From IMG/VR virus record IMGVR_UViG_3300045988_132849, positions 76,252 to 140,251 of that record: a DNA stretch of 64,000 bases; one strand, written 5' to 3'. Positions 2,884 through 36,340 of the stretch are shown here, one piece after another; position 1 is the stretch's first letter; each line of letters begins with the position of its first letter. This DNA is from a virus. Below the pieces are notes generated by a model, which was given only the letters and a program-made list of their open reading frames with translations, was not told the DNA's origin and ran no database searches. A program made the translations under genes and the position numbers.

Positions 2884-3543
2884 ATGGGAAATCGTGCAAT
2901 TATTAAAGGAAAGAACCATGCGTTAGGCGTATATGTGCATTGGAATGGTGGTTATGATTCTGTAAATGCTTTTTGTACATATTGTAAATTAAAAGGATAC
3001 AGAAGTCCAGAAACTGATAGCTACGGAATTGCTAGGCTTGCACAAGTGATTGGAAATTTCTTTGGCGGTAATGTTTCAGTAGGAATTGAGATCGTTGACA
3101 ATAATCCGACACCCAAACAAGTTGAGGAATTATGGCTTGATAATGGAATCTATGAGATTGAAGGTTGGAAAATTGTTAACCATATGAATCCTGATATAGT
3201 TATCAAAGAAGATCATGAGGAATATGACTTAATGGAATTTTTAGAAACCATTGACGAAAATATGCCGACTAAAGAACAGTTAGGAAAAGAATTCTTACAT
3301 TCAGAAGAAATGAACGTCACGGATTTAAAAGTCGGTGACGTTGTTTATTATTGGAATGAATTGTATGGAAAATATGAAAGACATACCGTTATAGGAATTG
3401 CAGAAGGCGAAACCATTAGAAACGGACATAATATGGATGGAATTCCATATATTGATTTATACGAAAATAATGGATCATATGATGGAAATCCTAACAATTA
3501 CTTAGCTTATCAGAAAACAATTAGAGTATGTAAAGAAAAGTAA
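2884..3543 (+). CDS. hypothetical protein (219 aa)
   Basis: GAAAGAAGG RBS then ATG 2884; long uninterrupted ORF. Confidence 0.55.
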   Translation: MGNRAIIKGKNHALGVYVHWNGGYDSVNAFCTYCKLKGYRSPETDSYGIARLAQVIGNFFGGNVSVGIEIVDNNPTPKQVEELWLDNGIYEIEGWKIVNHMNPDIVIKEDHEEYDLMEFLETIDENMPTKEQLGKEFLHSEEMNVTDLKVGDVVYYWNELYGKYERHTVIGIAEGETIRNGHNMDGIPYIDLYENNGSYDGNPNNYLAYQKTIRVCKEK

Positions 3544-8601: not shown

Positions 8602-8637
8602 AATACAAATTTTTACATAAGAAAGGTGGAATTAATT

Positions 8638-9990
8638 ATGAATCTAAACGAAATGGAAATTCCTTGCGATCCAATTTTGGACAAAGCAAAGAGGGATGAA
8701 TTGGTGCAGAACACAGAACTTTTGAAACAGGTTACAATTAAGCCGATTCCGTGGCTTCCTGGACGAGATTATATTACTACGGAACAGGTAGCACGATTCT
8801 TTGATGGAGATGTTGAGGAAGTCAAACGATTGTGTACGAAGTATCGTAAAGAATTTTTGGAAGATGGAATGGAAGTTAAGACAGTGCAGGAGATCATTGA
8901 CGGTCAGGACGCAGCAACGGAAAAACAGAAGGGAAGAATCATAGTAACGTATCCGAACGGATTGAATATCTCATTCGGTTACAAGGGTGCTAAGGTATTT
9001 ACTCTTAAATGCTTAATCAGATTGTCTTTGCTGATGGAAACTTCAAAGCTTGCCGAGAGTGTGAGATATTATGTTTTTATCAACGATTATATCACGATAG
9101 AAGAACAGAGAGAACAAGAACAGGTAGAGGCAGGCGTTAAGCTTGTTGACACAACGGAAATTTTAGGTAGACGAATTGATCTGTATAGAAGTATTGAAGA
9201 TCCGTTATTTTTAGCAAGAGATGTCGCAGAATGGATTGATTATAGTAAACGTCCTGATGGAAGTTATAGAACGGATAAAATGTTACAAGCGATTGATTCA
9301 GAAGAAAAATATAAGACCAAAATCTTAACCGCTAATAATGTTAGCGGGTCAAATTTAGGTCAGATTGATTCTACTGGAAAGACCATTAATCCATTTTGGT
9401 TCCTCACAGAAGATGGACTCTATGAAGTGTGTATGCAGTCACGTAAACCGATTGCCAAGCAGATGAAAAAGCAGATCAAAGAATATCTTAGAAACATTCG
9501 TAAGACAGGCGGTGCAGTTGATTTTGGAAAAGAGTCACAGTTCATTGAACACTACTTCCCGTCATTTTCTGAGGATGTCAAGCTTGCTATGGTAACGGAT
9601 CTGCGAACACAGAATAAAGAACTTAAAGAAGAGAATCAGAAGTTGCAGAATGATAACAAGTTATTAGCAGCGGAAATTTTAACATGGGATGATCGCAATA
9701 AGATGAACGCTGGAATTAGGAAGTTGGCTGCCGTTACAGGAACACAATTCTCTGTTATGTGGAACGAGCTTTATAAGAACTTGCAATACAAATACCATAT
9801 TGATGTTAAGAAACGTGGAAAGAAACCATTTCTACAGTGGATTCAAGAACATGAATGGGATAAGGTGCTGAAAGTCTTTTGTGCAATGTGTGAAGCTAGA
9901 AACCTATCTCCAACAGATATGTTCCAGCAGACAGCACCAGTGGAAAATTTGTATGATAATGAAGATGAGGATGATGAAGTATGGAATTAG
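8638..9990 (+). CDS. Bro-N-like domain protein (phage antirepressor family), ~450 aa
   Basis: Internal segment EDGLYEVCMQSRKPIAKQMKKQIKEYLRNIRKTGG parallels the Bro-N core of the 20959 gene (ESGLYALIFGSKLDTAKEFKHWVTSEVLPQIRKTGG). Confidence 0.5.
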   Translation: MNLNEMEIPCDPILDKAKRDELVQNTELLKQVTIKPIPWLPGRDYITTEQVARFFDGDVEEVKRLCTKYRKEFLEDGMEVKTVQEIIDGQDAATEKQKGRIIVTYPNGLNISFGYKGAKVFTLKCLIRLSLLMETSKLAESVRYYVFINDYITIEEQREQEQVEAGVKLVDTTEILGRRIDLYRSIEDPLFLARDVAEWIDYSKRPDGSYRTDKMLQAIDSEEKYKTKILTANNVSGSNLGQIDSTGKTINPFWFLTEDGLYEVCMQSRKPIAKQMKKQIKEYLRNIRKTGGAVDFGKESQFIEHYFPSFSEDVKLAMVTDLRTQNKELKEENQKLQNDNKLLAAEILTWDDRNKMNAGIRKLAAVTGTQFSVMWNELYKNLQYKYHIDVKKRGKKPFLQWIQEHEWDKVLKVFCAMCEARNLSPTDMFQQTAPVENLYDNEDEDDEVWN

Positions 9991-10554: not shown

Positions 10555-11646
10555 ATGAACCTACAGTTAGTAAAAACGGAAAATTTTAATGATTTATCGT
10601 GTGATTTTTATAGTGCTGAGGATGATATTTGGATGACAAGAAATCAAATTGGAGAAGCACTGGAATATGCAGATCCAAGAAAAGCAATTCAAAATATTCA
10701 CGATAAGAACAAGGATCGGTTTATTGGAAAATCAAGTGTCCTCAAAACGAGGACGGTTGATGGAAGGAATAGGGAAACAGTTGTATATAATGAGTTGGGA
10801 GTATTTGAAATATGTAGATTAAGTCGTCAGCCAAAAGCAGATGCCTTTATGGACTGGGCATGGAATGTTATCAAAGCTTATCGTCATGGAAATTTAAGAA
10901 CAGGAACTCCTGTAACGACAGTAGAACGATTTCTTACAGAGCAGACAGAACTTATGAAGCAGATGGAAAGAAACAACGAACGCCTATATAAGGTTACTAT
11001 CAAGGGATTTAATCAGCTGGCAGATATTGTTAAAGAAATGAAAGCCGAGCGGAAAGAACTGTATAAACAGATTGGTAAACCTACGAAAGATATTCCAGTA
11101 GTGGATACGGAAAGCGTTATCGCAGAATACAAACTTAATGAATGGAAGTCTAACGTTTATGGAATCATTAATGATATTTTGAAAGAATCTGATGAGTTAG
11201 GAACTACCACGAGAGATATTCTTAGAGAAGCATATAACTATTTAACCAACACATATGGAATTGTGTGGGAACAGGATCGGAAAGAATACAAAGAGAAATA
11301 CAATATTAGTGAAAGAGGTAATGTACCAACGATTGATCTTTGCTATGATAAATATCCTGACCTACTGGTAAGTGTGCTGGAAAAACTTCTGCGACAGTTC
11401 CGCAAAGAGAACGCACAGCCTGATTGGGATGAAATGAAGATTAAGATTACTAATTATGCGAATCATATTGGAAATAAATCTAAAGGCGGAACTTCTGTTT
11501 ATCGGAAAATTTATACTAAGATGACAGAGAATGGCGTTAATTGGGATGAGTATGCTCATGGATTGTCTAAATCCCAGCTTATTAAAACAAATGCAACTTT
11601 ATACAATAGATTTTATGAGGCTGCGGTGGAAATTATTAGTGAATAA
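10555..11646 (+). CDS. Bro-N family antirepressor-like protein (363 aa)
   Basis: N-terminus FYSAEDDIWMTRNQIGEALEYADPRKAIQNIHDKNKDRF ... GVFEICRLSRQPKADAFMDWAWNV fits the Bro-N domain. Confidence 0.65.
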   Translation: MNLQLVKTENFNDLSCDFYSAEDDIWMTRNQIGEALEYADPRKAIQNIHDKNKDRFIGKSSVLKTRTVDGRNRETVVYNELGVFEICRLSRQPKADAFMDWAWNVIKAYRHGNLRTGTPVTTVERFLTEQTELMKQMERNNERLYKVTIKGFNQLADIVKEMKAERKELYKQIGKPTKDIPVVDTESVIAEYKLNEWKSNVYGIINDILKESDELGTTTRDILREAYNYLTNTYGIVWEQDRKEYKEKYNISERGNVPTIDLCYDKYPDLLVSVLEKLLRQFRKENAQPDWDEMKIKITNYANHIGNKSKGGTSVYRKIYTKMTENGVNWDEYAHGLSKSQLIKTNATLYNRFYEAAVEIISE

Positions 11647-23652: not shown

Positions 23653-25722
23653 ATGTGCACACCAATGAATGAAAACTGGAGCAATTTTTTAAGCAAATTG
23701 TCAGAGCGTTTAAATAAAATGCTCGACTATGTAGAGAAAAACAATTCTACATTGTATGAAACCGATATTGATAAGGATGAACTTTGGGAAGTATATCTGA
23801 GTAGTTTCCCTGAAGGAACTAACAAAATGTATCGCAAGCGAAGAGAATATGACTGTGGTCATTGTCGAAACTTTATTAAAACAATCGGTGGAGCTGTGGC
23901 AATTGTTGACGGCAAGATTCATACAATCTGGGAGATCGACACAGATGATGTAGTATTTCAGCCAGTAGTTGATGCTTTAAGAACGTATGTCGAATCAAAG
24001 CCGATCAAAGATATTTGGAGACATTTTACAAACACAGTTGGTACAAAAACCACAAATGAGTATACAGAAGATAAGCAGATTATCAAATGGACTCATATGT
24101 ATACACCGATTCCAGAGAGGTTATTGGAAAGGAAATCTGATATTCCTACAGTTAAAGCAAAAGTGAGAGATCGAAAGAATGTGTTTAAAAGATCACTTGA
24201 TGAAATTACAGAAGAAGCTGTTGATACAGTATTAGAACTGATTGCTTCAAATACTCTTTATAGAGGACAGGAATGGGAAAGAGTATTAAAAGATTTTAGA
24301 AAATATCAGCGAGAATACAACGGTTTGCCAGATGAAGAAAAAGATACATACACATGGACAAAAGCCATGACGATCGGAGATGTAATTGGTCGTATTAGAA
24401 ACCATAGTATCGGTACATTACTTGTGAATATCAGTGAAGGTATGGATTTAGATAATGCAGTAAAAGCTTATGAAAATGTTGTAGCTCCTGCGAATTACAA
24501 ACGACCTAAAGCAATCTTTACAAAGAAAATGCTTGAAGATGCAAAGAAAACTGTAACCGATTTAGGATATATGGATTCATTGCAGCGTAGATTTGCAAGA
24601 CTTGACGATATTACAGTAAACAATATTCTGTTTTGTAATCGTGATGCAGCACCACGTATCCAGGGCGGTTTAGATATTTTTGATGAGATGAGTAAGGAAG
24701 TCGCTGTAAATCCTAAGAAATTCTCTAAAGTAGAAGAGATCAGTGCAGAGAAATTTGTATCAGATGTTCTTCCAACCGCAAAAGAATTAGAAGTCTTGTT
24801 TGAAAATAGACATAAGAAGAACATGGTTTCACTGATCGCACCTGTAAACAAAGATGCCAAGAACATGATGAAGTGGGGTAATCCTTTCAGTTGGGCATAC
24901 TCAGGAAATATGACAGATAGTGAGATGAAAGAAAGAGTTAAGAACGCAGGCGGAGCAGTTGATGGAGTCTTAAGATTTTCAATCCAGTGGAACGCAGGAA
25001 AAGACTGGAATAGGGATGATTTTGATGCACATTGTAAAACACCTTGTCATCATATTTTCTTTGGCCAGATGCTTGATCATAAAACACGAGGCAGACTTGA
25101 TGTTGATGTAATTAATCCAGTAAAGGGGAAACCTGCTGTAGAAAATATCACATGGGCGGATAAATCCAAGATGGTTGATGGAGATTATGAATTTTTCGTA
25201 CGCAATTATTGCCATAACAACGGTACATCAGGATTTACAGCAGAGATTGAATTTGATGGTCAGATTTACGAATTTGAATATGATAAACCTTTAAGACAGG
25301 GGCAGAACGTACCAGTGGCTACAGTTACATTAAAAGATGGAGTGTTCACAATCAAAGAGAAACTTCCATCTACAACATCTTCAAGAGAAATCTGGGGTGT
25401 CAATACAAATCAGTTTGTGCCAGTAACAGTAATGTGTTATTCGCCTAACTATTGGGATGAACAGACAGGTATTGGACACAAACATTATCTGTTCATGTTA
25501 AACGGATGTGTAAATGAAGATACTCCAAATGGATTCTTCAATGAGTTCTTGAAACAGGAATTAGTACAGCACAAGAGAGTATTCGAGGCTTTAGGAAGTA
25601 AGATGCATGTCGCAGATGATTCAAACCAGTTATCAGGAATTGGCTTCAGCTCTACAAAGCGAGATGATGTGATTGTTAAAGTCAAAGGCGCAACTGAAAG
25701 AGTTCTTAAAATTAAATTTTAA
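23653..25722 (+). CDS. large hypothetical protein (689 aa)
   Basis: AAAGGAGAT RBS; no family recognised. Confidence 0.5.
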   Translation: MCTPMNENWSNFLSKLSERLNKMLDYVEKNNSTLYETDIDKDELWEVYLSSFPEGTNKMYRKRREYDCGHCRNFIKTIGGAVAIVDGKIHTIWEIDTDDVVFQPVVDALRTYVESKPIKDIWRHFTNTVGTKTTNEYTEDKQIIKWTHMYTPIPERLLERKSDIPTVKAKVRDRKNVFKRSLDEITEEAVDTVLELIASNTLYRGQEWERVLKDFRKYQREYNGLPDEEKDTYTWTKAMTIGDVIGRIRNHSIGTLLVNISEGMDLDNAVKAYENVVAPANYKRPKAIFTKKMLEDAKKTVTDLGYMDSLQRRFARLDDITVNNILFCNRDAAPRIQGGLDIFDEMSKEVAVNPKKFSKVEEISAEKFVSDVLPTAKELEVLFENRHKKNMVSLIAPVNKDAKNMMKWGNPFSWAYSGNMTDSEMKERVKNAGGAVDGVLRFSIQWNAGKDWNRDDFDAHCKTPCHHIFFGQMLDHKTRGRLDVDVINPVKGKPAVENITWADKSKMVDGDYEFFVRNYCHNNGTSGFTAEIEFDGQIYEFEYDKPLRQGQNVPVATVTLKDGVFTIKEKLPSTTSSREIWGVNTNQFVPVTVMCYSPNYWDEQTGIGHKHYLFMLNGCVNEDTPNGFFNEFLKQELVQHKRVFEALGSKMHVADDSNQLSGIGFSSTKRDDVIVKVKGATERVLKIKF

Positions 25723-26688: not shown

Positions 26689-27285
26689 ATGGACGTTAAT
26701 AAATTATTGGTTGTCGTCGATATGCAGAATGATTTCATCGACGGAAGCCTTGGAACCAAAGAAGCACAGGAAATTGTTCCCAAAGTAATTGAGAAAATTA
26801 AAAATTTTGATGGCATTATTGTTACAACAATGGACACACACGATGAAAATTATTTATCTACACAGGAAGGAAAGAATCTTCCAGTAAAGCATTGCATCTG
26901 CGGAGAAGATGGATGGCATTTAAATGAAGAAGTTAGAAAGGCATTATTATCGTCAGAGATGTTTTGTCGCAATGACAAGCAAGAAAATGCTATTTGGCTT
27001 CTTGAGAACTATTGTAAAGAAACATTTGGGTCATTAGAACTTATGGACGATTGTTCTGATGAATTCGGTGAAGATGGTCGGTCTCATCCAGAAGATGTTG
27101 AAATTACCTTAATTGGTCTTTGTACAGATATTTGTGTAATCTCTAATGCAATGTTATTAAAAGCGGCACTTCCAGAGGCAAAGATTCTTGTAGATGCATC
27201 GTGTTGCGCAGGTGTAACACCAGAGAGCCACAAGAACGCACTCGAAGCAATGAAGATGTGTCAGATTGAAGTAATCAATGAGTAA
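26689..27285 (+). CDS. isochorismatase-family hydrolase, possible nicotinamidase (PncA-like), 198 aa
   Basis: LLVVVDMQNDFIDGSLG (Asp), metal-site-like DTHDEN, and LIGLCTDICV (nucleophile Cys) match the isochorismatase/nicotinamidase fold. Confidence 0.6.
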   Translation: MDVNKLLVVVDMQNDFIDGSLGTKEAQEIVPKVIEKIKNFDGIIVTTMDTHDENYLSTQEGKNLPVKHCICGEDGWHLNEEVRKALLSSEMFCRNDKQENAIWLLENYCKETFGSLELMDDCSDEFGEDGRSHPEDVEITLIGLCTDICVISNAMLLKAALPEAKILVDASCCAGVTPESHKNALEAMKMCQIEVINE

Positions 27286-27299
27286 AGGAGTGATGAAGG

Positions 27300-28136
27300 A
27301 TGATTACTATTGGTGGAGTACCAGTTGTTCCAGAATCTTTTCCAGATGGAACACAGAAAATTGGTTTGCCGTTAGGAGCAATGAGATCACGGATTGCAGT
27401 AAATAAATTTGTATCAATTGAATGGCTGTATGAATCAGATAAAGAATTATTTTCGCTATATTGTATTTCAAAAAGTATTCGAGAATATTTCCCACATTTA
27501 TCACAGTGTTTAGTGATGCCGTATATTCCGAATGCAAGATTTGACAGGGTTAAAGATCATAACGAATGTTTTACATTAAAATATTTTGCAGAAATCATCA
27601 ATGAATTAAATTTTAGAAAGGTCATCGTAACAGATCCTCACTCAGATGTTTCTAAAGCATTGATTGATCACCTACAATATATACCAATTAAACTATATAT
27701 TTCTAAGGTTTGCAATAAAGTCCTTAAAGCAGAGCCATCAAGAAATCTCGTAATTTATTTCCCAGATAGCGGATCACTAAAAAGATATTCTGAATTTGTG
27801 TCAGATCATTATCCGATTGTCTATGGAATTAAAAATCGTGATTGGAAGACAGGAGAAATTCTTGGTATTGAGATTCATGGAGATACAGATAAATTAGATG
27901 AGAATACAGCAATTCTAATGATTGATGATATTTGTAGTAAGGGTGGCACATTTTATTATGGATCAAAAGAATTAAGCAAATACGGTTGTAAAGATATGTA
28001 TTTATATGTTAGTCACTGTGAAAATACAATTCTTGATGGCGAATTATTAAAGGAAGATAGTTTGTTTAAAAAAGTGTATACGACACGTAGCATTTTTACA
28101 AAAGAACATGAGAAGGTTGAGGTGTTAGATTTATGA
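27300..28136 (+). CDS. ribose-phosphate pyrophosphokinase (PRPP synthetase)-family enzyme; candidate ADP-ribose pyrophosphokinase (Adps-like) of an NAD reconstitution pathway
   Basis: FPDGTQKI, LVMPYIPNARFDR (vs PRPS PYFGYARQDR), VIVTDPHSD, LVIYFPDSGSLKR, AILMIDDICSKGGTF (PRT type I nucleotide-binding motif). Confidence 0.7.
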   Translation: MITIGGVPVVPESFPDGTQKIGLPLGAMRSRIAVNKFVSIEWLYESDKELFSLYCISKSIREYFPHLSQCLVMPYIPNARFDRVKDHNECFTLKYFAEIINELNFRKVIVTDPHSDVSKALIDHLQYIPIKLYISKVCNKVLKAEPSRNLVIYFPDSGSLKRYSEFVSDHYPIVYGIKNRDWKTGEILGIEIHGDTDKLDENTAILMIDDICSKGGTFYYGSKELSKYGCKDMYLYVSHCENTILDGELLKEDSLFKKVYTTRSIFTKEHEKVEVLDL

Positions 28137-29599
28137 AACAGACAAATCCAATGTTATTAATTGATTTTTATAAAGCAGTTCATGCTGAAATGTTACCAAA
28201 AGGTATTACAAAATCTGTTTCTTATTTTACTCCACGTATGAGCAGGGTAAAACAATGGAACGAAGTCGTGATGTTTGGGTTACAGGGATTCATTAAAGAA
28301 TATCTGATTGATTATTTTAATAAGAATTTCTTTGATCTTAAAGGTGGAGCAGTTACTTCTTACAAGAGAATTATGGACGCAGCTCTTGGAGAAAATGCTT
28401 ATGGATTACAGAAAATCGCAGATCTTTATGAGCTTGGTTATCTTCCGATTGAGATTAAAGCACTTCCCGAAGGAACTTTAGTACCAATGCATGTACCGAT
28501 GTTTAGTATTGAGAATACTCACAAAGATTTTGCATGGTTACCACAGGCATTAGAAAGTTTAATTTCCGCAGAAATGTGGCATCCGATGATTGCTGCGACT
28601 GTCGGGCATACATATAGACAGATCGTTAATAAGTTTTATGAAATGACTTGTGATGATGATATTGTAAAAGCTAAAGCATTAGGGGCTTTCGATTTTCGTG
28701 GCGAAGAATGCTTACAGTCTGCGGTTAAAGCAGGAGCAGGATGGTGTTTATCATTCTTAAATACAGCTACGGTTCCAACAATTCCATATTTAGAGAGAAA
28801 TTATAATTGTGATTGTACGAAAGAACCAGTTGCTTTTGGTAGCCCGTCTACTGAGCATTCGGTTGCGTGTAGTAATTATGCGATTGACGGAGATGAAGAG
28901 ACTCTGATTAAAAGATTACTTACAGAGATTTATCCAAACACAAGCTTCTCCGCAGTATTGGATTCATATGATTATTGGAACGTTGTAGAGAATATTCTTC
29001 CAAAACTCAAGAATGAGATCATGAATCACAATGGATGTTTTCTTGTAAGAGGAGATTCAGGAGATTGTGTAGATGTAGTAACCAGAACGGTATTCAAGTT
29101 ATGGGAAGAATTTGGCGGAACTACGAATAGTAAAGGATACAAAGTATTAGATCCTCATATAAAAGCAATTTACGGAGATTCAATTACAGTGCAGAGATGT
29201 GAGCAGATTTATGACATCTTAGAGAAAAATGGATTCGCAGCAAGCAATGTTGCACTTGGCGTTGGATCATTCTCATTCCAGTGTATTGAAGAAGATAGAG
29301 TTTTGAAACCATTTACAAGAGATACATTTAGTAGCTGTATCAAAGCAACGTATTGCGAGATTGATGGCAAACCATATCCAATTTTCAAGAATCCAAAAGA
29401 TGGCGGATTTAAGAAATCTCAGAGAGGTTTATGTCATGTCTATAAAGAATCAGACGGTAAATTGACATTTAAAGATGGATATACTTCAGAAAATCTTCCA
29501 ATGAATAATCTGCTTGAGACAGTATTTAGAGATGGCAAATTGGTAAAAGAACAGTCATTACAGGAAATTAGAAGAGTTTTAAACGAAGGAGAATTTTAA
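28133..29599 (+). CDS. nicotinamide phosphoribosyltransferase (NAMPT/NadV)-family enzyme; candidate nicotinamide ADP-ribose transferase (Namat-like)
   Basis: 488 aa; N-terminus LLIDFYKAVHAEMLPKGITKSVSYFTPR matches the NAMPT DSYKvtH...ySYfe.R motif; start overlaps the PRPS-like gene. Confidence 0.75.
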   Translation: MKQTNPMLLIDFYKAVHAEMLPKGITKSVSYFTPRMSRVKQWNEVVMFGLQGFIKEYLIDYFNKNFFDLKGGAVTSYKRIMDAALGENAYGLQKIADLYELGYLPIEIKALPEGTLVPMHVPMFSIENTHKDFAWLPQALESLISAEMWHPMIAATVGHTYRQIVNKFYEMTCDDDIVKAKALGAFDFRGEECLQSAVKAGAGWCLSFLNTATVPTIPYLERNYNCDCTKEPVAFGSPSTEHSVACSNYAIDGDEETLIKRLLTEIYPNTSFSAVLDSYDYWNVVENILPKLKNEIMNHNGCFLVRGDSGDCVDVVTRTVFKLWEEFGGTTNSKGYKVLDPHIKAIYGDSITVQRCEQIYDILEKNGFAASNVALGVGSFSFQCIEEDRVLKPFTRDTFSSCIKATYCEIDGKPYPIFKNPKDGGFKKSQRGLCHVYKESDGKLTFKDGYTSENLPMNNLLETVFRDGKLVKEQSLQEIRRVLNEGEF

Positions 29600-30111
29600 T
29601 GATTAAAATTATTGAAGGCGATTTGTTTGATACAAATGCGAAATTTATTTGTCATCAAGTAAATTGTGCAGGGAAAATGGGATCTGGGGTAGCGTTACAG
29701 GTACGACAAAAATATCCGCATGTATATAAAGAATATGAAAAAGTTGCTTCGGAAGATATGTTAGGGGAAGTACAGATCATACCAGTGAATTCAAAATTTA
29801 TTGGACATGAACCAGGAGATATTTGGTGTGGTATGAAAGTAAAAGGGTTCAGGGAAACACAATGGATTTGTAATTTATTTGCTCAAAAGAGTTATGGATA
29901 TGACGGCAAGCAGTATACTTCAAATGAAGCTTTGAGACAGTGCTTTAAAAAACTTGCAGGAATGGTGCATGAGAAAAACAATAACTTTGGACAAACAATC
30001 GCTATGCCATATAAAATTGGATGTTGTCGTGGAGGATCTGATTGGAGTGATGTTGCCAATATTATCGAAGAAGAATTTAAAGATTGTAATGTAGAATTAT
30101 GGAGGTTATAA
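29599..30111 (+). CDS. macrodomain protein of the TARG1/OARD1/DarG type (ADP-ribosyl hydrolase), 170 aa
   Basis: IIEGDLFDTNAKFICHQVNCAGKMGSGVALQVRQKY and IAMPYKIGCCRGGSDWSDVANIIEEEF align with human TARG1 [37 protein letters not shown] / [26 protein letters not shown] (from memory). Confidence 0.7.
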   Translation: MIKIIEGDLFDTNAKFICHQVNCAGKMGSGVALQVRQKYPHVYKEYEKVASEDMLGEVQIIPVNSKFIGHEPGDIWCGMKVKGFRETQWICNLFAQKSYGYDGKQYTSNEALRQCFKKLAGMVHEKNNNFGQTIAMPYKIGCCRGGSDWSDVANIIEEEFKDCNVELWRL

Positions 30112-30114
30112 AAC

Positions 30115-30885
30115 ATGAGTTTTAATGCAGCAGAAACCAAAGACAGATTAGTACAGTGGATCAGAGATTGGTTTGAAATTAATGGCAAAGGATGTAATGC
30201 CATTGTAGGAATTTCAGGAGGCAAGGATTCATCAGTGGTTGCAGCCTTATGTGTAGAAGCACTTGGTAAGGATCGAGTAATTGGAATTATGATGCCACAG
30301 GGTGTGCAGTCGGACATTGAGTATTCTCAAATGCTATGTGATCATCTAGGAATTGAACATTACACAGTTAATATTTTTAATGCTTGCAGAGATATTAAAC
30401 ATGAAATCAGAGATGAATTAGGTGGTAAATGGAGTAAACAGAGTGCTACAAATTTACCTGCTCGTATCCGTATGGCTACATTATATGCTTTTGCACAGAG
30501 TATGAATGGAAGAGTAGCAAATACATGTAATTTATCTGAAGATTGGGTCGGATATGCAACAAGATATGGAGATTCGGCTGGAGATTTTAGTCCATTAAGT
30601 GATCTGACTGTGACAGAAGTTAAAGCAATTGGTAAAGTTCTGGGACTTCCAACAGAGTTAATCGAAAAAACTCCTACTGATGGGTTATGTGGCAAGACAG
30701 ATGAAGATAATCTTGGATTTACATACGAAGTGTTGGATGAATATATCAGAACAGGTGAATGCAAGGATAAAGTAGTGAGACAGATCATTGATGAAATGCA
30801 TGAGAAGAATGTATTTAAACTTGCTCCAATGCCTAAATTTATATCTGGCATGTGGATCGAGGCAGGAATGGAGTTGGATGATTAA
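30115..30885 (+). CDS. nadE: NH3-dependent NAD+ synthetase
   Basis: PP-loop IVGISGGKDSSVVAAL; ~256 aa, typical size. Confidence 0.85.
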   Translation: MSFNAAETKDRLVQWIRDWFEINGKGCNAIVGISGGKDSSVVAALCVEALGKDRVIGIMMPQGVQSDIEYSQMLCDHLGIEHYTVNIFNACRDIKHEIRDELGGKWSKQSATNLPARIRMATLYAFAQSMNGRVANTCNLSEDWVGYATRYGDSAGDFSPLSDLTVTEVKAIGKVLGLPTELIEKTPTDGLCGKTDEDNLGFTYEVLDEYIRTGECKDKVVRQIIDEMHEKNVFKLAPMPKFISGMWIEAGMELDD

Positions 30886-30887
30886 AT

Positions 30888-31220
30888 ATGGAAGTTAAAG
30901 CAAAATGGACAGGTCGTGGTTTTGCACTCTGTATTGGAGAATGGAAGCTTTATGTTGATGGCAAAGATGTTACCGATAAGATTCCAGAAGACTTACGCAC
31001 AGAACCTATGAATACATATAAGAAATATGAGAGATGGTATTTCAAAGGTTGGGTTGAAGAATGGGAGTCATATTATGACGGACTGAAACAAGATGAATGG
31101 ATTGAGTCTAATAAGTATTGGTTAGATGAAATTACAACAGATATTGATGTTCAGCGTCAGATCTTCAAAGCAATCAATGAAGAGGATTTTCGCCCTAACT
31201 CATGTGGTGGGTGTATTTAA
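30888..31220 (+). CDS. hypothetical protein (110 aa), translationally coupled to nadE
   Basis: ATG overlaps the nadE stop (TAAATATGG). Confidence 0.5.
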   Translation: MEVKAKWTGRGFALCIGEWKLYVDGKDVTDKIPEDLRTEPMNTYKKYERWYFKGWVEEWESYYDGLKQDEWIESNKYWLDEITTDIDVQRQIFKAINEEDFRPNSCGGCI

Positions 31221-31285
31221 TAACAAGATTATAACATCTATATATGGTGTTATGATAAATAAATTTTATAACAAAGGAGATATTT

Positions 31286-32746
31286 ATGATTGAAGTAATT
31301 GGAACAGTGGTACCAGTGGTTATTGCGGTAGGTGGCGTAGGAGCTATTATCGGTAGCGGTTATGTCAAAGCAAGTCCAGATAAAGCTTATATTATTTCTG
31401 GACTTAGAAAGACACCTAAGACATTAATTGGTAAGGCAGGGTTAAAAATCCCATTCTTTGAAAAAGCAGATCATCTTAATCTTGAGTTAATTCCAATTGA
31501 TGTTAAGACATCAAGCTCTGTGCCTACAGCAGATTATATCAATATCAATGTAGATGCAGCGGTCAATGTAAAGGTTAGCAGTAATCCAGAAAGATTAAAA
31601 CTTGCAGCAGAAAACTTCTTAAATAAGCCAGTAGGCGATATTGGACAGGTCGCAAGAGAAGTCCTTGAAGGTAATATGCGAGAGATCGTTGGAAAGATGA
31701 GCCTCGAAGAAATGGTTTTTGATCGTCAGAAATTTGCACAGCTTGTTACAGAAAATGCGAAGCCAGATCTTGCTGCAATGGGATTAGATATTATCAGTTT
31801 TAATGTTCAGAATTTTATGGATGATAATGATGTTATTGAAAATCTTGGTGTAGATAATGTTGTTAAAATCAAGAAGAAGGCTGCGATTTCCAGAGCTGAA
31901 AGCGAAAGAGATATTGAAAAAGCAAAAGCAATGGCTGAAAAAGAAGCAAATGATGCAAAGGTAGAGTCAGCAACAGCGATTGCAGAAAAGAATAACAATT
32001 TGGAGATTAAAAAATCTGAACTTGAAAAGATTTCAAAAGCAAAGAAAGCTGAGGCAGATGCAGCATACAAGATCCAGGAAGAAAAATCACGTAAAGAAAT
32101 TGAAGTTGTAACTGCGGATGCTAATATTATGCGTCAGGAAAAGGAAATTGAACTGAAACGCAAAGACGTTGAGGTAACAGAGCAGACATTAGATGCACAG
32201 ATCAAGAAGCAGGCAGAGGCTGAAAGATATGCTTCACAGCAGAAAGCAGATGCAGACTTATACAAGAAACAGAAAGAATCTGAAGCTAACAAATATGCCA
32301 AAGAAAAAGAAGCCGAATCTACAAAATATGCTATGGAGCAGGAAGCTGAAGGTATTCGTGCAAAGGGTGTAGCAGAAGCCGAAGCAATCAAAGCTAAAGG
32401 TATTGCTGAAGCAGAAGCAATCGAAAAGAAAGCAGAAGCTATGAAACAGATGGGTAAAGCATCTATTGTAGAAATGATGTGTCAGATGTTCCCAGAAGCA
32501 GTTAAAAATGCAGCCGCACCATTAGGAAATGTAGGAAGTATCACTATGTATGGAGAAGGAAACACAACAAAATTAACAAAAGATATTATGAATGTTGTGA
32601 ATCAGGTATCAGATGGTGTTAAAGGATCTACAGGTGTTGATCTTGCAAAGATGTTAAAAGATTTTGTTTCTGAAGACAACGAAGTAGAATCTACAGATAA
32701 TGAAAATCTTGGAACACCAGAGCCAGCAGATTACCGTGAGTTCTAA
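31286..32746 (+). CDS. flotillin / SPFH (band-7) domain membrane protein (486 aa)
   Basis: N-terminal TM, SPFH domain, then long EA-rich coiled coil (AEAEAIKAKGIAEAEAIEKKAEA), typical of FloT/YqiK/YdjI-type flotillins. Confidence 0.8.
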   Translation: MIEVIGTVVPVVIAVGGVGAIIGSGYVKASPDKAYIISGLRKTPKTLIGKAGLKIPFFEKADHLNLELIPIDVKTSSSVPTADYININVDAAVNVKVSSNPERLKLAAENFLNKPVGDIGQVAREVLEGNMREIVGKMSLEEMVFDRQKFAQLVTENAKPDLAAMGLDIISFNVQNFMDDNDVIENLGVDNVVKIKKKAAISRAESERDIEKAKAMAEKEANDAKVESATAIAEKNNNLEIKKSELEKISKAKKAEADAAYKIQEEKSRKEIEVVTADANIMRQEKEIELKRKDVEVTEQTLDAQIKKQAEAERYASQQKADADLYKKQKESEANKYAKEKEAESTKYAMEQEAEGIRAKGVAEAEAIKAKGIAEAEAIEKKAEAMKQMGKASIVEMMCQMFPEAVKNAAAPLGNVGSITMYGEGNTTKLTKDIMNVVNQVSDGVKGSTGVDLAKMLKDFVSEDNEVESTDNENLGTPEPADYREF

Positions 32747-32760
32747 TAGGAGAAATTATT

Positions 32761-33495
32761 ATGACAATTATTATTATTTGTGTAATTGTAGCGATTATCG
32801 TATATTTACAATTTACTAAAAATGGAAAGCAGATTAAAAATGTAGCATCTGGAACAGTTACAGAGAAAATCAAAGAAAATGCAATGACCCCAGAGGGAGC
32901 AAGAGCCAGATATAATACTGCAATTAAAGAGAAACAGGACTTTTACAAGAAAACAATGGGTACATACACAACGGTGGCTGGTAGATTAGCAACAATGGAA
33001 GATGATCTCAAAGAAACTAAAGAAGAAATTTCTAAAACCGAGGTAATGATCAACCAGTACATTGATAACAACGATGACAAAAAAGCAATGTATTATGCTC
33101 AAAAATTAGCCACGCTAAAGGCACAGAAATCAGTGTACGAAAAGAAAATCCCAGAGTTGCAATCCACAAAAGATAAACAAGAAGAAATTAAAAACCAAGC
33201 ATATGATCAGCTCATTAAGTTAAAAGGCGAAAAAGATACTGTGGTTCTCCAGATGGAAGCGGATCAGCAGATTGCAGAATTGCAGAAAAATTTAGATCAA
33301 TACAATAGTTCTAATGCTGCTCAGGAAGGATTGGAAGAGGTTCGAGAAGGAGCAAAGAAGCTTAGCGAACAAGCCAAAGGCGTTACCATTGCGTATGAAT
33401 CTAGTGCAGAAACATTGGATTATCATATGGAACAAGAAGAGCGACAGCAGGAAGCTAAATCTATATTAGATCAGATGAAAAACGCTCGCAAATAG
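32761..33495 (+). CDS. membrane-anchored coiled-coil protein, weakly PspA/IM30-like (244 aa)
   Basis: N-terminal TM helix then ~220-aa amphipathic coiled coil; the PspA resemblance is loose. Confidence 0.35.
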   Translation: MTIIIICVIVAIIVYLQFTKNGKQIKNVASGTVTEKIKENAMTPEGARARYNTAIKEKQDFYKKTMGTYTTVAGRLATMEDDLKETKEEISKTEVMINQYIDNNDDKKAMYYAQKLATLKAQKSVYEKKIPELQSTKDKQEEIKNQAYDQLIKLKGEKDTVVLQMEADQQIAELQKNLDQYNSSNAAQEGLEEVREGAKKLSEQAKGVTIAYESSAETLDYHMEQEERQQEAKSILDQMKNARK

Positions 33496-33625: not shown

Positions 33626-33763
33626 GGAAACATAGCTCAGTTGGTAGAGCAGGCAATACATAAACATTCATTTTTCTACCTCCATATAAGTATTTTTATT
33701 TATTTACATTTAATTTTCATCACATATAAATTGCCGACACAGGTTCGATTCCTGTTGTTTCCA
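33626..33763 (+). tRNA. tRNA-like gene (anticodon probably CAU: Met or Ile2-type) interrupted by a ~67-70-nt AT-rich insertion in the anticodon loop
   Basis: Acceptor GGAAACA/TGTTTCC, D-arm GCTC-AGTTGGTA-GAGC, anticodon stem GGCAA/TTGCC, T-arm ACAGG-TTCGATT-CCTGT, discriminator A. Loop begins TA-CAT-AA. The insert is flanked by ACATAAA / ACATATAAA direct repeats. Confidence 0.5.
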
Positions 33764-35277: not shown

Positions 35278-35790
35278 ATGAGTACAACAAAAACAATTGA
35301 TATTTCAGTGCTGCCAGAGGCAGAACAGGATCTAATAAAAGCATTATTTGATAAATGTTGTGAAAGAGCGAAACCAAAAGAAAAAACTAATTCAGGGTCT
35401 AAAGTTTGGAAACCAAAATACGGTGAAAGATATCATTACATTGATGGTAGCGGATCTATTTATAGTGCAATATGGTTTAATAGCATTGTCGATAACGGTA
35501 GATGGGTATTAGGCAACGTATTTAAAACACAAGAAGAAGCAGTATTTGCAAGAAAGAAAAGAAAAGTAGAAGTTGAACTTGAGCGGTATGCAAAGGAACA
35601 CAATGGCACAGAATTTGCCAATCGTTGTTATTGTATTCGATGTGAAGAAGACGGAAAAAGACTTCTTTGCGATACATGGGCTACAACAAAAATACAGGGT
35701 ACAGTTATGTTTACATCAAAAGATGTTTTAGTTGATGCAATTGAAGCAATCGGAAGAGACAGAATCATTAAATACATCTTTGGAGCATAA
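35278..35790 (+). CDS. hypothetical protein, paralog A of a tandem pair (170 aa)
   Basis: M.T.KTIDIS.L.EA.Q.L.K.LF...CER and LGNVFKT.E conserved with the next gene. Confidence 0.5.
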   Translation: MSTTKTIDISVLPEAEQDLIKALFDKCCERAKPKEKTNSGSKVWKPKYGERYHYIDGSGSIYSAIWFNSIVDNGRWVLGNVFKTQEEAVFARKKRKVEVELERYAKEHNGTEFANRCYCIRCEEDGKRLLCDTWATTKIQGTVMFTSKDVLVDAIEAIGRDRIIKYIFGA

Positions 35791-35806: not shown

Positions 35807-36340
35807 ATGGGTACAGAAAAGACAATTGATATTTCAAAATTATCTGAAGCACAACAGAATTTATTCAAATCATTATTTGAGCAATTTTGTGAAAGATCAG
35901 AAAAAGAAGAAAAAGCTAATTCATGTGGTTTAAAGAATGGGGATACGTATTATTTCATCACTGATGATGGGCATATCTGTATGGCAAAATGGCAAGGTAG
36001 AGCATCAGATTTTAGAAGATTAGCTTTAGGTAATGTATTTAAGACTGAAAAGGATACAGAGTTTGCTATTGAAAAGCAGAAGGTTAGGGTTGAATTGCAA
36101 ATATATGCTGATGAACATAATGATCCTGATCAAGAAGAATGGGATGGAGCGAATTTTCATTATTATATTGGATATGATGTGACTGAGGATGATTTGGCAA
36201 AAATCCCTGCCGTACAACTTAGACGCCTAAATGAGGTATATTTTTCTTCTAAAGAAATCGCTGAGGATGCCGCCAACAAGGTTGGAGCAAAACGCATCAT
36301 AAAATATCTATTTGATGTTGATTGTGAGGTGGATGAATAG
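35807..36340 (+). CDS. hypothetical protein, paralog B of the tandem pair (177 aa)
   Basis: See paralog A. Confidence 0.5.
   Translation: MGTEKTIDISKLSEAQQNLFKSLFEQFCERSEKEEKANSCGLKNGDTYYFITDDGHICMAKWQGRASDFRRLALGNVFKTEKDTEFAIEKQKVRVELQIYADEHNDPDQEEWDGANFHYYIGYDVTEDDLAKIPAVQLRRLNEVYFSSKEIAEDAANKVGAKRIIKYLFDVDCEVDE

Follow-up and report, generated by a model that had tools for sequence, protein, structure and literature searches.

Bacteria organise and repair their membranes mainly with two scaffolds, the PspA/Vipp1/ESCRT-III proteins and the flotillins, and work on both usually treats them as means by which the host withstands envelope stress, whether or not a phage is its cause. The present analysis concerns a 64,000-nucleotide (nt) stretch of virus DNA (hereafter the window; positions 76,252 to 140,251 of IMG/VR record IMGVR_UViG_3300045988_132849), in which a gene for a flotillin of 486 amino acids (aa) is followed by a gene for a PspA-like protein of 244 aa. 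Judged from homology and gene context, the two would form a phage-encoded membrane-maintenance module, a reading that is the best supported of those considered and to which we give roughly even confidence.

Relation to described systems

Among the closest described counterparts is the pspA-ydjGHI (samGHI) operon of Bacillus subtilis, in which an ESCRT-III-type PspA is likewise coupled genetically to an SPFH protein in a Bacillota-type cell, and in which PspA depends on the SPFH protein YdjI for its recruitment to, and localisation at, the membrane (Scholz et al., 2021; PMC8581546). A first-pass annotation of the window had cited this operon as a precedent, and the precedent is real. YdjI is, however, a short SPFH protein recruited by YdjG and YdjH, whereas the partner in the window is a FloT-like flotillin of 486 aa with its own putative anchor; no zinc-ribbon (YdjG) or TPM (YdjH) domains were found beside the module, where the neighbours are PM0253-like, NadE and HTH_26 genes. 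The PspA of B. subtilis is soluble and has an amphipathic helix alpha0, whereas the PspA-like protein of the window has its own transmembrane helix. The gene order is also reversed in the window, with the SPFH gene first, and the genes are phage-borne. The module is neither a B. subtilis pspA-ydjGHI operon nor built on a canonical, alpha0-bearing PspA, the defining features of both being absent.

In cellular genomes PspA is repeatedly linked with Band-7/flotillin proteins, and flotillin was proposed to recruit or interface with PspA at special lipid domains (PMC11237479). These operons place the same two protein classes side by side, but they also hold a CesT/Tir-PspA dyad, a YqiJ/YuaF (NfeD-like) protein and often an AAA+ ATPase, none of which occurs at the window locus. 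Transmembrane-bearing PspA/Snf7 proteins, with the same architecture of a transmembrane helix joined to a PspA body, were reported from operons with an ABC ATPase, a permease and a PBPB-OmpA protein (Ravi et al., 2024; PMC11237479). That context is matched by homologues of the window protein in Bacillus phage G (gp243-250) and on the gut phage contigs L014, L093-95, L101 and L103, whereas the window has a flotillin instead of the transporter and OmpA genes, and the PspA-like identity to this type is only ~23–28%.

Among phages, Jug and other huge phages of the gut have TerD beside a pspA-like gene, together with a Ca2+-exporting P-type ATPase (Sci Adv 2026, PMC12880540). In parallel to these, relatives of the window phage hold ATPase, vWA-TerF, TerD and PspA-like genes in the flotillin slot. 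The Jug-type phages have predicted Bacteroides hosts and genomes of 360–402 kb, no flotillin variant was described, and the pspA-like gene was mentioned once, without analysis (PMC12880540). Kuttervirus SeF3a (Gp_125, phrog_1203; PMC9409062) and Acinetobacter phage ME3 (PspA/IM30) likewise encode PspA-superfamily proteins, and an action against abortive infection was already put forward for the SeF3a protein (PMC9409062); unlike the family described here, these proteins fall into another PHROG family, come from phages of Gram-negative hosts and have no reported transmembrane anchor or SPFH partner. The literature searched gave no description of a phage flotillin–PspA pair, of this transmembrane-anchored family as one that occurs in phages, or of the three-way cassette polymorphism.

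The flotillin and the PspA-like protein

Both open reading frames (ORFs) begin with ATG, are preceded by a Shine-Dalgarno-like AGGAG and are separated by 14 nt. The features of the locus are as follows.

31221..31285, + strand: upstream boundary of the exchangeable cassette, 65 nt of intergenic DNA in which the first cassette gene has its ribosome-binding site (AAAGGAGAtattt-ATG), as read from the sequence
31286..32746, + strand: flotillin gene, 486 aa, assigned by profile matches; this ORF is absent or replaced in relatives
32747..32760, + strand: 14-nt gap between the two genes, in which the PspA-like gene has its ribosome-binding site (TAGGAGAaattatt-ATG); it marks the downstream boundary of the inserted flotillin
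32761..33495, + strand: gene for the membrane-anchored PspA/IM30-like (ESCRT-III superfamily) protein, 244 aa, phrog_33389
32764..32814, + strand: codons of the predicted N-terminal transmembrane helix (aa 2–18, TIIIICVIVAIIVYLQF), from the modelled helix and the hydrophobicity in the family
32890..33489, + strand: codons of the PspA-like body, alpha1 to alpha5, from the modelled secondary structure and the profile alignment to Vipp1

A promoter and terminator scan of the window gave counts not above those of shuffled sequences, with no promoter directly 5' of the flotillin gene and no predicted terminator between or after the two genes. The operon limits were therefore drawn with gene spacing as their sole basis, and the 14-nt gap implies co-expression. 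Among phage relatives, each gene was under strong purifying selection (dN/dS 0.03–0.11), and both are maintained. No defence-system model of PADLOC matched either protein, whereas the homology matches described below are much stronger than chance would give.

The 486-aa protein matched Pfam Band_7 (PF01145) over aa 50–207 (8.4e-23, 81.7 bits, cut-off 23.6) and, as a marginal pass, Pfam Flot (PF15975; 2.7e-6, 27.9 bits, cut-off 27), which upheld the SPFH identity proposed from the first reading. Human flotillin-1/2 chains solved by cryo-electron microscopy were matched at 1.6e-52 over residues 29–455 of the window protein. The NCBIfam FloT model (NF058507) was matched at 9.4e-89 over residues 47–461, with 298.6 bits against an equivalog cut-off of 700; by its profile matches the protein is a member of the flotillin family and not a FloT equivalog. 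The hydrophobic N-terminus (MIEVIGTVVPVVIAVGGVGAIIGSGYV) includes a putative membrane anchor at aa ~5–25 (IGTVVPVVIAVGGVGAIIGSG), read from the sequence, and is followed by the SPFH/Band_7 domain, by an EA-rich coiled coil with the Flot domain (aa ~210–430; visible EA-rich repeats, AEAEAIKAKGIAEAEAIEKKAEAM) and by an acidic C-terminal tail. The expectation that flotillins are rare in phages was borne out, as a tblastn match was obtained in 10 of 50,697 GenBank phage records, two of which carried an annotation as flotillin.

The 244-aa protein has a hydrophobic helix at residues 2–18, then a Lys-rich stretch and long helices. Searched alone, it matched Pfam PspA_IM30 (PF04012) with E 0.022 and 14.8 bits (aa 52–242 on model positions 29–217 of 220), short of the gathering score of 33.9 bits; the NCBIfam search returned noise only, and the protein falls into phrog_33389, labelled 'unknown function'. 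The resemblance to PspA claimed in the first-pass annotation was thus genuine but weak in a domain search with the single sequence, and it reached significance for the family. An exhaustive search of 1.84 billion proteins with a hidden Markov model yielded a compact family of 251 representatives (E ≤ 1e-3), almost all with lengths of 240–260 aa. PspA_IM30 was matched by 11 of the 12 close members and by 58 of the 94 diverse ones (best 6.6e-13), and a homologue at 3082–3912 of L014 (GenBank phage contig MT835556) passed the cut-off with 42.4 bits. JGI gives one family cluster the name 'phage shock protein A', and one has the RefSeq name 'MULTISPECIES [Clostridia]', with contigs that look phage-like.

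With a family profile of 94 sequences, solved Vipp1/PspA chains ranked first (1.1e-7). Family positions 44–205 aligned to Vipp1 25–187, and the motif TPEGA..Y..AI, whose TPEGA precedes the PspA-like body and aligns with the DPEK motif of Vipp1, was placed on Vipp1 DPEKMLEQAI; T43, G46, I55, G74, L154 and G207 are nearly invariant in the family. The 94-sequence alignment was needed, as a shallow profile of 12 sequences yielded only spurious PDB matches (fatty-acid-binding protein and others, E > 0.1). A word-indexed protein search was saturated by coiled-coil words and uninformative.

The AlphaFold2 model, built from a deep alignment (predicted local distance difference test score 87), consisted of helices at 2–18 (transmembrane) and 20–41 (juxtamembrane), a long hairpin formed by alpha1 (aa 44–102) and alpha2/3 (aa 106–183), and the helices alpha4 (191–214) and alpha5 (216–243). 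Vipp1/PspA accounted for 13 of the top 18 PDB matches of this model in Foldseek (TM-score 0.5–0.66, E ~7e-3), in agreement with the ESCRT-III-like fold that had been anticipated. Because the PspA_IM30 matches of the family, the Vipp1 profile match, the model and the Foldseek result point together to the same superfamily, we regard the membership of the protein in the PspA/IM30/Vipp1 (ESCRT-III) superfamily as established at the family level. The hitherto functionally unassigned phrog_33389 thereby gets a fold and a probable role.

In canonical PspA and Vipp1, the amphipathic alpha0 serves reversible membrane binding. No such helix was found in the window protein, where the hydrophobic helix at aa 2–18 and a linker occupy its place and the Vipp1 alignment begins at residue 25. 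A strongly hydrophobic N-terminal helix was present in 100 of 105 full-length representatives, and the predicted replacement of alpha0 by a real transmembrane anchor is the defining difference of this family. Under the positive-inside rule, the Lys-rich segment after the helix suggests that the C-terminal body is cytoplasmic. LiaI of B. subtilis is a small membrane anchor of the PspA homologue LiaH, and the LiaI–LiaH pair is thus likewise a PspA-type protein held by a dedicated transmembrane anchor; in the window, however, anchor and PspA-like body are joined in cis within one protein, and there is no LiaFSR-type regulation.

Other identities of the 244-aa protein were rejected. As to TelA (toxic-anion resistance), there was no Pfam TelA match at E ≤ 1, and a viral TelA appeared only at rank 16 in BFVD (E ~0.05). 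An i-spanin-like lysis protein, also composed of a transmembrane helix and a coiled coil, does not fit with a host that is likely monoderm, the absence of a lysis cassette nearby, a body predicted to be cytoplasmic and a significant PspA homology. Matches to SMC/JetC-like coiled coils were at noise level only.

Exchange of cassettes upstream of the PspA-like gene

Upstream partners were counted in the best 78 IMG/VR loci of 156 confirmed relatives. The gene directly 5' of the PspA-like gene was the flotillin gene in 33 loci, TerD in 44 and neither in one. The PspA-like gene is the constant element and its upstream partner a swappable cassette. The Ter cassette in full comprises a Ca2+ exporter, (vWA-TerF) and TerD, and its flanks are often near-identical to those of the flotillin type. 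In such Ter-type relatives, the flanking NadE, PM0253-like, HTH_26 and 135-aa genes were 90–100% identical to those of the window, and the position of the flotillin ORF was occupied by genes for a P-type cation (Ca2+-type) ATPase, a vWA-TerF-like protein and TerD. A domain scan detected no TerD or vWA-TerF gene in the window, these being present in the allelic cassettes of relatives. Similarity of the ATPase/vWA/TerD-type relatives to the window extended up to 31291 and then broke; downstream of the flotillin gene, similarity to Ter-type and flotillin-less relatives restarted at 32744–32751. By these comparisons the flotillin has recently replaced a Ca2+-ATPase/vWA-TerF/TerD cassette.

The exchange reaches into the PspA-like gene. 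In L057, both sides showed 99–100% DNA identity to the window, whereas the PspA-like gene reached only 53–72% (protein 50%); a PspA-like allele specific to the cassette is therefore part of what is exchanged. As each cassette type has its divergent PspA-like allele between flanks that are 96–100% identical, the cassettes behave as integrated modules. A second phage group, which shares the 689-aa DUF8224 protein family of the window, showed the same slot behaviour with a third cassette, composed of an ABC permease, an ABC ATPase, a 177-aa coiled-coil protein, the PspA-like protein and an OmpA/solute-binding protein; its alternative in that group is ATPase, vWA-TerF, TerD and PspA-like, and between flanks of 96–99% identity the two PspA-like alleles were only 25% identical. 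Bacillus phage G has the ABC/OmpA arrangement with a PspA-like homologue at gp243-250, and in L101 an unrelated 288-aa protein with a transmembrane helix and an SPFH domain precedes this arrangement, a second and independent SPFH association. Distant phages contain an ATPase, three TerD and a PspA-like gene, and in L102 a Na/Ca exchanger stands in for the ATPase. In related phages the PspA-like gene of phrog_33389 thus follows quite different partners, or none, and the alternative partners of the family are all membrane or ion-homeostasis devices. The PspA-like gene is an old phage family. A natural fusion of TerD and the PspA-like protein that lacks the transmembrane helix (P0018, at 6001–7080 of L012) is a 'Rosetta-stone' hint that TerD and this family may act together physically.

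The predominance of Ter partners (44 of the 78 loci) bears on a different function, namely superinfection exclusion, in which the module would remodel or stiffen a sub-membrane layer and so block competing phage DNA, bacteriocins or xenobiotics. Ter genes (TerD/TerF/TelA) of jumbo phages were read as acting against superinfection through sub-membrane structures (Iyer et al., 2021; PMC7824862), and a protein of the PspA/IM30 family also occurs in phage ME3, whose Ter system is nearly complete. There is, however, no Ter gene in the window, the known roles of flotillin and PspA lie in organising and repairing membranes rather than in the blocking of entry, and the module adjoins NAD+-salvage genes that serve the replication of the phage itself. 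We consider superinfection exclusion unlikely.

The origin of the flotillin differs from that of the PspA-like gene. Longibaculum muris and Coprobacillus cateniformis (Coprobacillaceae, Erysipelotrichales) have the nearest cellular proteins, chromosomal flotillins with ~70% identity, and the phage took its flotillin recently from a Coprobacillaceae-like lineage, its likely host. On metagenome scaffolds of Longibaculum type, PadR, a HAAS-domain protein, an 80-aa ORF and the flotillin are followed by a radical-SAM gene, without a PspA-like gene; the phage therefore captured the flotillin ORF alone. This order before the bacterial flotillin was seen in L001-L003 (4746–5891). PadR-HAAS pairs are described partners of phage shock protein (PSP) envelope-stress systems (PMC11237479), and the host flotillin, standing behind such a pair, may therefore be under envelope-stress control. 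The donor locus rules out the transfer of the pair as a bacterial operon. The first-pass description of a phage copy of a bacterial pair accordingly did not hold, since the bacterial flotillin has no PspA neighbour, the partner is not YdjI-like and YdjG/H-type genes are absent. A donor locus without PspA and a phage PspA-like gene behind varied partners indicate that the pair was assembled inside phage genomes.

Several observations weigh against a functional module made of these two proteins. The PspA-like protein of the window stays below the gathering score of its Pfam model, and the donor locus has no PspA-like gene. In L030, window positions 31221–32745 (flotillin and 5' spacer) have no counterpart, with similarity breaking at 31220 and the PspA-like gene directly after the PM0253-like gene; this PspA-like gene is 96% identical although the flotillin was lost or never gained, so the flotillin is not obligatory. 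In L021 the flotillin appears frameshifted. The PspA-like alleles of all 33 flotillin loci are 95–99% identical, which makes the pairing young. Behind one flotillin stands a natural chimera (P0003), in which the first 117 residues are of window type and the C-terminal half is of Ter type; at least the C-terminal half of the PspA-like protein is therefore not partner-specific.

Such observations could mean that the two genes are not functionally coupled at all, the flotillin being a stand-alone gene of host origin in a recombination hot spot and the adjacency accidental. The insertion or replacement boundaries match the flotillin ORF exactly, the PspA-like gene of L030 is unchanged without it, the chimeric allele sits behind a flotillin, the donor locus lacks PspA, and the region is generally plastic, as some close relatives have the macro gene (29599–30111 in the window) and others lack it. 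This explanation seems doubtful to us in view of the following points. All that was found in the cassette slot is associated with membranes, L101 links an independent SPFH protein to the PspA-like family, the 14-nt spacing implies co-expression, and bacterial PspA is repeatedly linked to Band-7/flotillin proteins and in B. subtilis physically depends on an SPFH protein.

Further insertions and neighbours were seen around the cassettes of relatives. In L094 (737–1297 and 8750–11616), genes of homing-endonuclease type interrupt others: a NUMOD4/HNH_3 ORF splits the DNA ligase gene and a GIY-YIG ORF splits the OmpA/solute-binding gene 3' of the PspA-like gene, both genes being intact in L093. A Tad2-like gene (anti-Thoeris family; 5015–5509 in L093) lies a few genes 5' of the PspA-like cassette in L093-95, and an IS605 OrfB/Cas12f-like TnpB gene lies 3' of the cassette in L008 (11550–12458).

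Proposed role and genomic setting

On membranes under stress, PspA and Vipp1 form polymers and maintain the proton-motive force, and SPFH proteins scaffold membrane domains. In the membrane-maintenance reading, the PspA-like protein would be the effector and, because a transmembrane helix replaces the amphipathic alpha0, would be permanently fixed on the cytoplasmic side of the host membrane, where it may polymerise, seal or stabilise stressed membrane and so preserve the proton-motive force. The captured flotillin would assemble SPFH scaffolds in the same membrane and may organise or concentrate the PspA-like polymer. The module would be expressed together with host-sustaining genes, and the pair would probably help an infected cell to stay intact and energised while a long infection runs its course; in particular, it may act against abortive-infection effectors that depolarise the membrane or form pores, or against premature lysis. 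The earlier suggestion of membrane protection or remodelling, possibly against abortive-infection effectors, is in this respect plausible.

The same properties could serve the timing of lysis. A PspA-like polymer, with the flotillin, would then buffer the depolarisation caused by holin, delay lysis and enlarge the burst of a large, slow phage. PspA counteracts the loss of proton-motive force (PMC9409062), and the protein is predicted to be anchored in the membrane with a cytoplasmic body, but no holin, endolysin or other lysis gene lies nearby and the module stands in a metabolic and replication region. Control of lysis timing is hard to separate from membrane maintenance, and we regard it as very improbable.

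TerD is a Ca2+-binding protein. Ter-type cassettes combine Ca2+ exporters, TerD and copine-like vWA proteins, which hints that the PspA-like polymer may be Ca2+-responsive there. Tentatively, and with clearly less confidence than for the module itself, the anchored PspA-like family may be the core of a phage ESCRT-III-type membrane repair with interchangeable sensor or organiser front ends (flotillin; Ca2+ exporter with Ca2+-binding TerD and copine-like vWA; ABC transporter with peptidoglycan-binding OmpA), used by gut phages as a counter-defence against membrane-disrupting abortive-infection effectors; the Ter variant would be gated by Ca2+ influx, as in the ESCRT-III repair of the eukaryotic plasma membrane. 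An interference of the phage PspA-like protein with CBASS, a cyclase of which is kept inactive through conjugation to host PspA (PMC11153139), is speculative.

The genes directly 5' of the module (26689–30885, + strand) form an NAD+ salvage or reconstitution cluster, with an isochorismatase-type nicotinamidase, a Prs-like gene (ribose-phosphate-pyrophosphokinase-like, phrog_619) that overlaps a NAMPT-like gene (phrog_448), a macro domain and NadE. The Prs-like and NAMPT-like pair resembles the Adps/Namat pair of the NARP1 NAD+ reconstitution pathway. This cluster supports a host-maintenance or counter-defence neighbourhood for the module.

A tRNA-like gene lies within the 308-nt gap right after the PspA-like gene (33626–33763, + strand). 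It matched the full Rfam tRNA model with 46.4 bits (cut-off 29), with 81 nt replacing 15 positions of the anticodon arm; its acceptor, D and T arms are preserved, and between the two strands of an anticodon-like stem (GGCAA/TTGCC) lies an AT-rich insert of ~70 nt, far too short for a group I intron. ARAGORN called no tRNA in the window or in related loci, and the gene is apparently an interrupted, intron-bearing or decayed one. Further downstream, two adjacent paralogous ORFs (35278–35790, +, 170 aa; 35807–36340, +, 177 aa) have similar N- and C-termini and cross-match at ~76% DNA identity (blastn).

The window looks like part of a large tailed phage. It is AT-rich (G+C ~31–37%), its GC skew is steadily positive and nearly all ORFs of at least 120 aa are on the + strand. 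PHROG matches included Ant-like anti-repressors, a DnaB-like helicase, a primase and phage-only families, and genes for a DnaE-type polymerase, a RecD2-like helicase and RecJ were also found. The Ant-like ORFs are two in number, at 8626–9990 (+) and 10555–11646 (+), in phrog_130 and phrog_5060; an integrase gene was present on the distantly related contig L010. A 689-aa protein (23653–25722, +) belongs to phrog_1735 (9.5e-263) and had no Pfam match in the local scan. Related contigs have homologues that bear the label DUF8224, and in the second phage group (L093-L098) a DUF8224 protein of the same length is encoded 5' of the PspA-like slot; the protein is a useful marker for this phage assemblage.

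Viral contigs of ~140–166 kb in IMG/VR were near-identical to the window, and the flotillin was 96% identical to a 'Caudoviricetes sp.' protein in NR, with contigs bearing it of up to 293,787 bp. A near-DNA search of GenBank phages gave no close relative, and relatives occurred solely in metagenome-derived collections. The phage group is distributed in the human gut, in hundreds of assemblies, with viral contigs of ~140–166 kb and metagenome contigs of up to ~290 kb.

These results imply that widespread phages of the human gut carry their own PspA-type protein, predicted to be permanently anchored in the membrane, together with alternative partners. The natural, near-isogenic variants with flotillin, with Ter genes or with neither make the function directly testable. 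The module links the long-enigmatic Ter/TerD genes, Ca2+ export, SPFH proteins and ESCRT-III-like membrane repair in abundant gut phages, and adjoining an NAD+-reconstitution cluster it may represent a candidate new class of phage genes for counter-defence or host maintenance.

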